DNA of 64,000 bases from Escherichia coli (GTDB lineage: Bacteria > Pseudomonadota > Gammaproteobacteria > Enterobacterales > Enterobacteriaceae): the NCBI RefSeq assembly GCF_041248615.1, contig NZ_CP158426.1, one strand, 5' to 3'. Made by a program: the position numbers and the translations under genes. This document shows, piece after piece, positions 1 to 3,225 of this stretch (positions are counted from its first letter, which is position 1; each line of letters begins with the position of its first letter). Under the pieces are notes generated by a model. It was not told the origin of the DNA. It worked only from the letters and a program-made list of their open reading frames with translations, and did no database searches.

Positions 1-111
1 TGAATATCGAATATGGGTGTGTACATAAAGCAATGTACATGAAAGTCATTATGTACACCTCTATGTACACGCATATTGTGCGCTTTGTTGCGTCGTTATG
101 ATAGCTCATGA

Positions 112-152
112 TAACAAAAAAGCCCGACATTTCGCGGGCTTTGTGGTTTTTT
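112..152. terminator. Bidirectional hairpin (gcccgacatttcgcgggc) flanked by A-run and T-run, just downstream of yicC
   Basis: Inverted repeat with T-tracts on both strands directly after the yicC stop at 179. Confidence 0.5.
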
Positions 153-178
153 GCTGCTTGGTGATTTTTATTGATAGC

Positions 179-1042
179 TTATTCGATATTCTGGATCTGC
201 TCGCGCATCTGCTCAATCAACACTTTCAGCTCGATGGCAGAATTCGTCACTTCGGCATTGATAGATTTCGACGCAAGAGTGTTCGACTCGCGGTTGAACT
301 CCTGCATCATAAAGTCCAGACGACGACCAACCGCTTCTTTTTTCTTCAGAATGTTGTAGGTCTCTTTGACATGCGCTTCGAGGCGGTCCAGTTCTTCGGC
401 AACGTCAATTCGTTGTGCCAGCAGAACCAACTCCTGCTCCAGACGGTTGTTTTCCAGTTGCACCTGAGCATCTTCCAGCTTCGCGACCAGACGCTCACGC
501 TGCCATTGCAGGATTTCCGGCATATGGGCGCGGACTTTGACCACTTCGGCGGTGACGCCTTCCAGACGCTGCTCGATCAATGCTTTCAGCGCCTGACCTT
601 CGGTTTCGCGCGCGACGATAAAGTCGTCCAGCGTACCATCCAACGCCGCGAGAATTTCAGCGGCAATCGCGTCGAGATCCTGCTCCTGGGCTGCCATCAC
701 GCCCGGCCAGCGTAGAATATCAACCGGGTTGATTTCCCCTTCGTCACTCTGCATTTTTACCCAGTTCGCGGCAGTTACCAGCTGTTTAGCCAGTTTTTCG
801 TTGAGGATCAGCTCACCTTGTGCGCTAACATCTGGTTCATAGCGCAGGGTACATTCCACTTTACCGCGCGTCAGGCGAGAACGAATACGCTCGCGAACGA
901 CAGGTTCAAGGCTACGGAACTGCTCCGGCAGACGAAAGTAAGTTTCCAGATAACGCTGGTTTACCGAGCGCATTTCCCAGGTTGCGCTCCCCCATTCACC
1001 CTTGATTTCACGCCGGGCGTAGGCGGTCATACTGCGGATCAT
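179..1042 (-). CDS. yicC: YicC-family stress-induced protein (UPF0701)
   Basis: 287-aa ORF; sequence and position divergent from rph match E. coli YicC. Confidence 0.9.
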   Translation of the reverse strand: MIRSMTAYARREIKGEWGSATWEMRSVNQRYLETYFRLPEQFRSLEPVVRERIRSRLTRGKVECTLRYEPDVSAQGELILNEKLAKQLVTAANWVKMQSDEGEINPVDILRWPGVMAAQEQDLDAIAAEILAALDGTLDDFIVARETEGQALKALIEQRLEGVTAEVVKVRAHMPEILQWQRERLVAKLEDAQVQLENNRLEQELVLLAQRIDVAEELDRLEAHVKETYNILKKKEAVGRRLDFMMQEFNRESNTLASKSINAEVTNSAIELKVLIEQMREQIQNIE

Positions 1043-1126
1043 AGACGTTCCTGTTTATAAAAGGAGAGGTGGAAGGATTATAGCCATCGATGCCTTGTCA
1101 GGATAGGAATAACCGCCGGAAGTCCG

Positions 1127-1132
1127 TATAAT
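1127..1132 (+). promoter_or_regulatory. Candidate -10 hexamer TATAAT for the rph-pyrE promoter
   Basis: TATAAT ~37 nt upstream of rph ATG; no good -35 seen. Confidence 0.35.
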
Positions 1133-1168
1133 GCGCAGCCACATTTGTTTCAAGCCGGAGATTTCAAT

Positions 1169-1885
1169 ATGCGTCCAGCAGGCCGTAGCAATAATCAGGT
1201 GCGTCCCGTTACCCTGACTCGTAACTATACAAAACATGCAGAAGGCTCGGTGCTGGTCGAATTTGGCGATACCAAAGTATTGTGTACCGCCTCTATTGAA
1301 GAAGGCGTGCCGCGCTTCCTGAAAGGTCAGGGCCAGGGCTGGATCACCGCAGAGTACGGCATGCTGCCACGTTCTACCCACACCCGTAACGCGCGTGAAG
1401 CGGCGAAAGGTAAGCAGGGTGGACGCACCATGGAAATCCAGCGTCTGATCGCCCGTGCTCTTCGTGCGGCAGTAGATTTGAAAGCGCTGGGTGAGTTCAC
1501 TATTACGCTGGACTGCGACGTGCTTCAGGCTGATGGTGGCACGCGTACCGCTTCGATTACGGGTGCCTGCGTGGCGCTGGCAGATGCGCTACAGAAGCTG
1601 GTGGAAAACGGCAAGCTGAAAACCAACCCGATGAAAGGGATGGTAGCCGCAGTTTCTGTCGGGATTGTGAACGGCGAAGCGGTTTGCGATCTGGAATACG
1701 TTGAAGACTCTGCCGCTGAAACGGACATGAACGTGGTGATGACTGAAGACGGGCGCATCATTGAAGTGCAGGGGACGGCAGAAGGCGAGCCGTTCACCCA
1801 TGAAGAGCTTCTCACCTTGTTGGCGCTGGCCCGAGGGGGAATCGAATCCATTGTAGCGACGCAGAAGGCGGCGCTGGCAAACTGA
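1169..1885 (+). CDS. rph: Ribonuclease PH, full length (238 codons)
   Basis: ORF-track protein from internal Met [10 protein letters not shown]...ATQKAALAN; start trimmed from 1145 to ATG at 1169. Confidence 0.95.
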
Positions 1886-1890
1886 TTTTT

Positions 1891-1918
1891 AAGGCGACTG
1901 ATGAGTCGCCTTTTTTTT
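1891..1918 (+). terminator. pyrE attenuator hairpin plus T8 tract
   Basis: aaggcgactgatgagtcgcc followed by tttttttt, 6 nt after rph stop and upstream of pyrE; matches the classical UTP-sensitive pyrE attenuator arrangement. Confidence 0.8.
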
Positions 1919-1950
1919 GTCTGTAGAAAAGTAAGATGAGGAGCGAAGGC

Positions 1951-2592
1951 ATGAAACCATATCAGCGCCAGTTTATTGAATTTGCGCTTAGCAAGCAGGT
2001 GTTAAAGTTTGGCGAGTTTACGCTGAAATCCGGGCGCAAAAGCCCCTATTTCTTCAACGCCGGGCTGTTTAATACCGGGCGCGATCTGGCACTGTTAGGC
2101 CGTTTTTACGCTGAAGCATTGGTGGATTCCGGCATTGAGTTCGATCTGCTGTTTGGCCCTGCTTACAAAGGGATCCCGATTGCCACCACAACTGCCGTGG
2201 CGCTGGCGGAGCATCATGACCTGGACCTGCCGTACTGCTTTAACCGCAAAGAAGCAAAAGACCACGGTGAAGGCGGCAATCTGGTCGGTAGCGCGTTACA
2301 AGGACGCGTAATGCTGGTGGATGATGTGATCACCGCCGGAACGGCGATCCGCGAGTCGATGGAAATTATTCAGGCCAATGGCGCGACGCTTGCTGGCGTA
2401 TTGATTTCGCTCGATCGTCAGGAACGGGGGCGCGGCGAGATTTCGGCAATTCAGGAAGTTGAGCGTGATTACAACTGCAAAGTGATCTCTATCATCACCC
2501 TGAAAGACCTGATTGCTTACCTGGAAGAGAAGCCGGAAATGGCGGAACATCTGGCGGCGGTTAAGGCCTATCGCGAAGAGTTCGGCGTTTAA
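1951..2592 (+). CDS. pyrE: Orotate phosphoribosyltransferase
   Basis: 213-aa protein [11 protein letters not shown]...; PRPP-binding motif [13 protein letters not shown]; start trimmed to ATG at 1951. Confidence 0.95.
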
Positions 2593-2600
2593 AGAAACTC

Positions 2601-2622
2601 GCCGGATGAAAAGTCATCCGGC
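2601..2622. terminator. REP-like hairpin gccggatga...tcatccggc between convergent pyrE and slmA
   Basis: Perfect 9-bp inverted repeat between two convergent stops. Confidence 0.5.
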
Positions 2623-2628
2623 GTCATA

Positions 2629-3225
2629 TTACTGCAACTGTGCGGCAATTAGCGGCCAGCGGGCGTCAAAATCATCCGTCGGGCGGTATTTAAACTCGCT
2701 GCGGACAAAGCGTGACAGCATACCTTCACAGAAGGCCAGGATCTGGCTTGCCAGCAGGGTTTCATCGGTGGTGTAACCTTCACCCTCACGCATTCTCTTT
2801 TCGCGCAATACCTGACGCAACTGCGCTTCAATACGCTCGAACAGCTGGTTGATGCGCCCTTGCAGGCGATCCTGTTCAAACATTAGTGCATGACCAGTGA
2901 GGATGCGGGTCAGGCCAGGATTACGCTCACCAAAACCGAGAAGCAGCAACACAATCAGACGCAGGCGCGCTGTGGTGTCCTTCTCATCTTTCAGAATCAG
3001 ATTGATGCGAGTAATCAGGCTATCTTCGATAAACTCAATCAGGCTATCGAACATGCGGGTCTTACTGGGGAAGTGGCGATACAGTGCCGCTTCGGAAACG
3101 CCGACAGAGGCGGCCAGTTTTGCCGTCGTGATACGTTGGCTTCCATCGCTGGATTCCAGCATCAGCGCCAGAGACTGAAGTATTTCCTCGCGACGGTTCC
3201 TTTTCGCAGTTTGTTTTTCTGCCAT
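2629..3225 (-). CDS. slmA: Nucleoid occlusion factor SlmA (TetR family)
   Basis: 198-aa protein from [17 protein letters not shown]...; start trimmed to ATG (cat at 3223-3225). Confidence 0.9.

Follow-up and report, generated by a model that had tools for sequence, protein, structure and literature searches.

Arm-type sites are textbook knowledge for integrases of the lambda and P4 kinds. Phage lambda Int, a heterobivalent integrase, recognises its arm sites (P1, P2 and P'1 to P'3) through its N-terminal domain; these short repeats occur in either arm of attP and do not resemble the core in sequence. The integrases of lambda and HK022 use the same arm sites but have different core specificities, and P4 Int represses its own promoter through its N-terminal part. 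In KplE1 (CPS-53), the attL arm sites of IntS overlap the autoregulated int promoter, and Int represses int (PMC2951348). Gram-negative PICIs are recognised by their gene order and by a size of about 10-20 kb (PMC6092414, PMC10111431). Our literature search turned up no account of arm-type sites in PICI or yicC integrases, nor one of an (A/G)(T/G)GTACAC site for P4-like integrases.

We analysed a 64,000-nt stretch of E. coli DNA (the window), which corresponds to 160001-224000 of the E. coli NRZ14408 record NZ_LT599825.1. Positions are those of the window, except that numbers with the prefix L001 belong to the island locus of NRZ14408 and those with other L prefixes to loci of related islands. 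Four short repeats at the left edge of the window are best read from their sequence and setting as putative arm-type binding sites for the tyrosine integrase of a PICI-like phage-satellite island in the 3' end of yicC, a reading to which we give a probability of roughly 0.85.

A cluster of repeats beside yicC

A motif search located RTGTACAY four times at the left edge of the window. The copies, the arm that contains them and the adjoining gene are as follows.

19-26, - strand: candidate arm-type site 1, GTGTACAT on the + strand, with the reverse complement ATGTACAC; it faces the opposite way to sites 3 and 4
33-40, - strand: candidate arm-type site 2, ATGTACAT, a perfect palindrome; its inverted placement comes from the comparison with relatives
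51-58, + strand: candidate arm-type site 3, ATGTACAC, in tandem with site 4 at a 12-bp spacing
63-70, + strand: candidate arm-type site 4, ATGTACAC, the other member of that tandem pair
1-178, no strand assigned: int-proximal arm of the attachment site of the PICI-like island, that is, the island DNA between the int start codon and the att core; an attL-type junction (P' arm) in lambda/KplE1 naming
179-1042, - strand: yicC, encoding a YicC/YloC family endoribonuclease, the target gene of the island

The preliminary description had reported four (A/G)TGTACA(T/C) copies, the palindrome among them, and all were found exactly where it had placed them. Outside the cluster, the rest of the 64-kb window holds just two more RTGTACAY matches. 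Over the whole window, the hexamer TGTACA by itself is about as frequent as expected (11 observed against 11.5), so that the signal lies in the local cluster. When window 1-178 (39% GC) was shuffled 20,000 times with its dinucleotides preserved, two matches occurred in nine shuffles and three or more in none, compared with the four observed; the test is conservative because the motif inflates its own dinucleotides. Chance in AT-rich DNA, one of two explanations put forward in the preliminary description, was rejected by this result, and the other, an array of binding sites, was supported in kind.

The repeats lie in island DNA

A megablast search with window 1-1100 against 5,426 complete E. 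coli genomes matched yicC in 5,424 of them. Most of these genomes, K-12 TG1 included, align only from position 179, which is the yicC stop codon. Window 1-178 is therefore missing from K-12 and most E. coli, and the arm is island DNA and no host intergenic region. The 188-nt arm was found in 454 of the 5,426 genomes, at identities from 100% down to about 74%, and not in about 92% of them; in every island locus examined, it sits between an integrase gene and yicC. In NRZ14408, the tyrosine integrase gene (int) is on the - strand, like yicC, and its ATG is about 10-11 nt to the left of window position 1.

These comparisons change the setting in which the repeats had first been placed. They are downstream of yicC in the geometrical sense (yicC being on the - strand), but the DNA differs from the yicC-dinD intergenic region of K-12. 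The proposed alignment to K-12 matches the window only from 179 rightwards, and the K-12 yicC-dinD spacer contains no TGTACA. Regulator sites in a region leading towards a neighbouring host gene were likewise not borne out, since window 1-178 is mobile-element DNA and the neighbour is the element's own int.

The island of NRZ14408 occupies L001 954-20199, about 19.2 kb from the dinD side to the yicC stop codon. According to the annotation, the block between dinD and yicC contains int, a hypothetical gene, an AlpA-like HTH gene (two genes beyond int), genes for an AntA/B antirepressor, a DUF4222 protein, an Ash-family protein and a TOPRIM/DUF927 primase, together with P22-like ejection-protein genes, an Abi protein and a PerC-family regulator. 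Like Gram-negative PICIs, the element has int, an AlpA-like gene, antirepressor and Ash genes, a P4-type primase and a PerC-family gene, with int, alpA and the primase/replication genes in one direction (annotation and Pfam). Its size, 12.15 kb as a circle and about 19.2 kb integrated, is also PICI-like (12-19 kb), and yicC is a known PICI target. It differs from them in the extra cargo of P22-like ejection-protein genes. PICIs are expected to lack phage structural and lysis genes and to depend on a helper phage for induction and packaging; the NRZ14408 copy has annotated ejection/injection genes, and the 12-kb circular copy described below has a remnant.

The stretch L001 1443-9429, to the left of the window, carries phage injection and DNA-ejection annotations (P22-like, plus DUF2824), an Abi-family protein and a PerC-family regulator. 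Ejection-protein genes of a virion are unusual satellite cargo, and the 12-kb circular copy keeps just the remnant. In strain CFIAFB20180511 (L012, NZ_CM143727.1 78687-82759), int and one small ORF are all that stand between dinD and yicC; this is an island remnant with a damaged far core. The gene dinD is annotated as frameshifted in CFIAFB20180511, and with an internal stop in the island-bearing O111:H2 strain 12A (L015 29155-29979).

Attachment core and circular copy

The att core was defined by comparing attB (K-12), attP (the circular element) and both NRZ14408 junctions.

179-199, no strand assigned: att core TTATTCGATATTCTGGATCTG, made up of the final 21 nt of yicC with its stop codon; a second copy stands at the far end of the island

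Across the compared att sequences, the core reads TTATTCGAT(A/G)TTCTG(A/G)ATCTG, and the C-terminus of YicC (...QIQNIE*) is kept after integration. Bases differ from junction to junction at core positions 10 and 16, which suggests that strand exchange takes place within TTCTG.

The core copies at the far junction (near L013 22084, L014 27190 and L015 30200) are shorter in some relatives, with TTACTCAATATTGAATCTG, TTATTCGATGTTGAATCTG and TTATTTGAATCTG. GAATCTG is the sole part common to all far-junction core copies compared. Such shorter far cores fit the 'attB drift' described for yicC PICIs (bioRxiv 10.1101/2022.07.18.500453).

The intact attP was taken from NZ_CP148430.1 (L003), a circular record of 12,152 bp deposited as a plasmid of E. 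coli Z1323CEC0013. It encodes int, an alpA-like gene, an antirepressor, Ash, a TOPRIM/DUF927 primase and PerC, and the annotation of the whole 12,152-bp record contains no plasmid functions. With the same int, alpA, primase and PerC genes, it is thus a copy of the element in excised form, and its attP is intact. This suggests that the island family is active and able to persist or replicate as a circle.

The circular element has six RTGTACAY matches, all of them within attP, where 0.53 would be expected in the element; none of 200 shuffles reached six. On the int side of attP there are four sites, the nearest end being 108 nt from the core. On the other arm, two tandem sites ATGTACACccttATGTACAC (ATGTACAC-N4-ATGTACAC) start 63 nt past the core; in NRZ14408 this distal pair is at L001 1038-1057. 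The 24-nt block ATTATGTACACCTCTATGTACACG, which contains sites 3 and 4, is repeated at 92% identity on the distal arm. GTAC is absent from the core TTATTCGATATTCTGAATCTG, so that the sequence of the arm sites is unrelated to that of the core. Repeats on both attP arms that are unrelated to the core have the classical layout of integrase arm-type sites.

Conservation in related islands

The preliminary description had named conservation in orthologous intergenic regions as the check on the motif. At the orthologous empty site the motif is absent, as is the whole element, but in the orthologous arms of related islands it is strongly conserved. We aligned 14 diverged arms, four of them from IMG/VR contigs, with a mean column identity of 73%. 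Of the 51 relatives from the IMG/VR scan, about 17 were usable, most contigs being cut at the int start codon and so lacking the arm. At site 1, GTGTAC is invariant in all 14 arms at a fixed position, and the same is true of GTACA at sites 3 and 4. Site 2 is the least conserved: NT1W22 and PSS-08-1 have ATGTACCC there, and the O111, 90-3040, vir030 and vir033 arms a degenerate version.

The distal arm has a fixed geometry as well. In four islands (L001, L013, L014 and L015), the tandem pair starts exactly 63 nt after the GAATCTG of the far core, and the 63-nt stretch in between is highly diverged among the four. Two viral contigs with attP have a tandem pair on each arm.

The relatives also give the orientation of the sites. 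Those with GGGTACAC at sites 3 and 4 have GTGTACCC, which is GGGTACAC on the - strand, at site 1 and ATGTACCC at site 2. The site is therefore asymmetric, (A/G)(T/G)GTACA(C/T), with sites 1 and 2 inverted, and the true site of the window element would be the asymmetric 5'-ATGTACA(C/T).

The integrase and its N-terminal domain

In a Pfam search, Int contained Arm-DNA-bind_3 (residues 4-90, E = 9e-20), Phage_int_M and Phage_integrase domains. Residues 1-100 gave sequence matches to the solved structures 3JU0 (arm-binding domain of HAI7 integrase) and 3JTZ ('arm-type binding domain of HPI integrase'). The AlphaFold model of residues 1-100 (pLDDT 90.4) has the order H6-15, b19-25, b28-32, b40-47, b50-58, H64-79 and H84-99, and superposes on 3JTZ, 3JU0 and 3RMP ('recognition of attP substrates by P4-like integrases') at an rmsd of 1.5-1.8 A. 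The Pfam and structural matches identify Int as a P4-like heterobivalent integrase with an arm-binding domain. Like P4 Int and the HPI and HAI7 integrases, it has this domain architecture and, as modelled, this N-domain fold; its sequence is only 27-29% identical to the HPI and HAI7 arm domains. A tblastn search of Int against phage records returned nothing above 34% identity.

A more distant clade of integrases, 63-64% identical and with the N-domain sequence ...LYLRFRKEDKTPFW..., was seen in the IMG/VR loci L040-L054. The 99 nt upstream of int in these loci contain GGGTATACC, GGGTACAT and GTGTACCC repeats in a different arrangement, so that GTAC-centred arm sites seem to reach beyond the yicC family.

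Site type and N-terminal domain switch together

The related islands fall into two types. Elements that we call A-type have ATGTACA(C/T) at 18 of 20 proximal and all examined distal sites, and their Int reads ...LY(I/L)C(Y/F)P..Y..PFWR(F/Y)RY...GKQR; an example from the ATGTACAC elements is ...CYPKNYTVPFW...GKQR. G-type elements have GGGTACAC, GTGTACAC or GGGTACAT sites, none of which starts with AT, and an Int that reads ...LYLRYR..D..PTWRFRY...GK(S/A)R, e.g. ...RYREADKTPTW...GKSR. One G-type distal site begins with AG and several with GT, so the specificity rule is not absolute. All copies in one element have the variant of that element, the distal pair included (NT1W22 has GGGTACAC and GTGTACAC on both arms), which argues for a common reader protein.

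Three pairs of elements with opposite site types differ mainly in the N-terminal domain of Int (identities).

NRZ14408 and NT1W22: Int body (residues 96-422) 98%, N-domain (residues 1-95) 81%
2013C_3964 and 90-3040: Int body (residues 96-422) 96%, N-domain (residues 1-95) 82%
WWCOL-256 and WP5-W18: Int body (residues 96-422) 98%, N-domain (residues 1-95) 83%

At the DNA level, 2013C_3964 and 90-3040 are at least 90% identical over yicC, the core and the terminator, only 46-80% identical from about -100 to +198 of the int ATG, and then again mostly at least 90% identical. The profile of WWCOL-256 against WP5-W18 is alike, and between NRZ14408 and NT1W22 the low-identity stretch is longer, extending to about +558. 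In the first two of these comparisons, the low-identity cassette of about 300 bp consists of exactly the four sites and the coding region of the N-domain; it ends in int at about codon 66, with alpA outside it. The residues that switch (32, 34, 41 and 52) fall on strands b2-b3 and b4 of the Int model, which, by analogy with the solved P4-like and lambda arm-domain complexes, would be the strands that read DNA. Part of the co-variation could be physical linkage, because in the circle the sites adjoin the stretch that encodes the N-domain, and the two could be exchanged as one block.

Other elements of the arm and the AlpA-like protein

Three further elements were recognised in the arm.

119-142, - strand: island-borne intrinsic terminator, a hairpin followed by a T-run, from a terminator scan of both strands
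98-116, no strand assigned: conserved direct repeat ATGATAgctcATGATAac, conserved in most arms and outside the TGTACA family
2-13, no strand assigned: GAATATCGAATA, beside the int ATG on its upstream side; its 12 nt repeat window 180-191, within the core, perfectly in inverted orientation

The stem of the terminator is kept by compensatory changes in diverged arms (gcccg/cgggc, acccg/cgggt and gcccc/ggggc). The native yicC terminator of K-12 is displaced by about 19 kb, to the far junction beside dinD. The island terminator replaces the native yicC terminator and would insulate int from yicC read-through. In an Rfam search for RNA elements, all matches in the arm were sub-threshold and were rejected: Trp_leader (24 bits against a gathering score of 41 bits) is the terminator hairpin, and the others are two miRNA families.

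Although none of 2,000 shuffles reached 12 nt for the inverted core copy, its identification as a conserved second core-type site was rejected because the best match in diverged relatives is 4-7 nt. It could be a pseudo-core site peculiar to this lineage, or coincidental.

The 98-116 repeat shares the 13-mer TCATGAGCTATCA with the region just upstream of the alpA-like gene, a length reached in one of 300 shuffles, and is a candidate AlpA/RDF binding motif. It bears on whether the TGTACA sites could themselves belong to the AlpA-like protein, either as a recombination directionality factor (RDF, or excisionase) or as an activator of int. RDFs bind short repeats in att arms, the AlpA-like gene is close to int, and the AlpA-like proteins of elements of different site type differ, being 75%, 57% and 37% identical to that of the window element; the co-switching cassette, however, stops inside int, short of alpA. 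The AlpA of GN-PICIs activates its own promoter and perhaps that of int as well (PMC10111431), yet neither the motif nor its GTACA part occurs in the 471 nt upstream of alpA. The sites moreover stand on both arms at fixed distances from the core, as is typical of Int arm sites, whereas RDF sites are usually on one arm. AlpA is thus an unlikely reader of the sites, and the 98-116 repeat, common to the arm and the alpA upstream region, is its better candidate.

The 98-116 repeat also has two 9-mers in common with the alpA upstream region (L001 17604-18074). In the 90-3040 island, a different 12-mer is common to these two regions.

Proposed role of the sites

We propose that the four repeats and the distal pair are bound by Int. 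The integrase would act as a heterobivalent protein, its N-terminal Arm-DNA-bind_3 domain holding the arm sites and its C-terminal domains binding and cutting the core. By bridging arm and core, Int would form an intasome for integration at the yicC 3' end, and excision would proceed through the same intasome, probably with the AlpA-like factor. Recombination would be expected to require the sites.

Int bound to the proximal sites probably also represses its own promoter. These sites are at -29 to -80 from the int ATG, between the island terminator and int, so that the int promoter is expected among them, and the two probably overlap. Like int of the KplE1 IntS/TorI system, the island int points away from the junction, with its promoter expected in the arm that has the P' arm-type sites; by analogy, this predicts negative autoregulation by Int. 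KplE1 differs in that its sites have a TAAA motif, its target is the tRNA gene argW and its promoter was mapped (PMC2951348), none being recognised in the island arm. Autoregulation is the least secure part of the proposal, since neither a sigma-70 consensus promoter nor an exact IHF site was found: the arm gave no sigma-70-like promoter at the scan threshold, and by eye only 8-of-12 matches, e.g. with TGTACA as the -35-like hexamer, and the exact IHF consensus WATCAANNNNTTR had no match in the attP arms.

The position of the proximal sites downstream of the terminator and the repression of int through attL sites in KplE1 (PMC2951348), as also in P4, would likewise fit sites that serve only as operators of the int promoter, with Int or a repressor of the island as their ligand and no part in recombination. 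We regard this as very unlikely, because two of the copies are distal, 12-19 kb from int in the integrated state and with no adjacent promoter function apparent, and because the 63-nt distance of this pair from the core is conserved; an operator role is, besides, compatible with that of arm sites. The array of short quasi-palindromes resembles operator arrays, but sites for host transcription factors of the yicC-dinD region are most improbable in DNA that K-12 and about 92% of complete E. coli genomes lack, given that the K-12 spacer is without TGTACA, that the dinD LexA box lies outside the island at the far junction, and that the motif type co-varies with a domain of an island protein. A functionless cluster, arisen by chance or as a relic of slippage or duplication, is hardly credible either: the local GC content is low and TGTACA is made of common dinucleotides, but no shuffle gave three copies, the 14 diverged arms all keep the GTAC(A) cores unchanged and in place, and matching pairs occur on the other arm.

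Comparison with known systems and significance

Read as integrase arm-type sites, the repeats are an expected part of a tyrosine-integrase element and involve no new mechanism. As in lambda, the int-proximal arm has the larger number of sites (here four, against two on the distal arm). Lambda differs in the sequence of the sites and in the family of the N-domain, which here is the P4-type Arm-DNA-bind_3; the target here is the 3' end of a protein gene, yicC. Unlike in lambda, the island int is transcribed away from att from within the arm, and an intrinsic terminator lies between the core and the proximal sites.

A mildly unusual aspect is a shared core and attB combined with differing arm specificity. 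Like lambda and HK022, the yicC islands have closely related integrases that diverged in one of two DNA specificities, but they share core and attB and appear to differ in arm specificity. That this keeps competing islands orthogonal is speculative. We tentatively suggest, as a possibility that is rather less than even, that competitors for the yicC 3' end keep their core and catalytic specificity and have repeatedly swapped the arm-specificity cassette of about 300 bp, with matching distal sites, giving orthogonal ATGTACAC and GGGTACAC systems. If this is true, the integrase of one island would be unable to excise, integrate or repress another that competes with it or lies in tandem, and the cassette swaps would be an 'immunity-type' diversification of arm recognition, the converse of lambda/HK022. 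The natural A-type and G-type variants, with near-identical catalytic bodies and swapped N-domains and sites, offer a test of how P4-like integrases read arm DNA, and could serve as orthogonal int/attP pairs in genome engineering.

An apparent regulatory motif has thereby become a junction map with a core, two arms, six predicted integrase sites and a terminator supplied by the element. The island family to which it applies is present at yicC in about 8% of complete E. coli genomes, O157- and O111-type included, and carries PerC-family regulators and defence or cargo genes.
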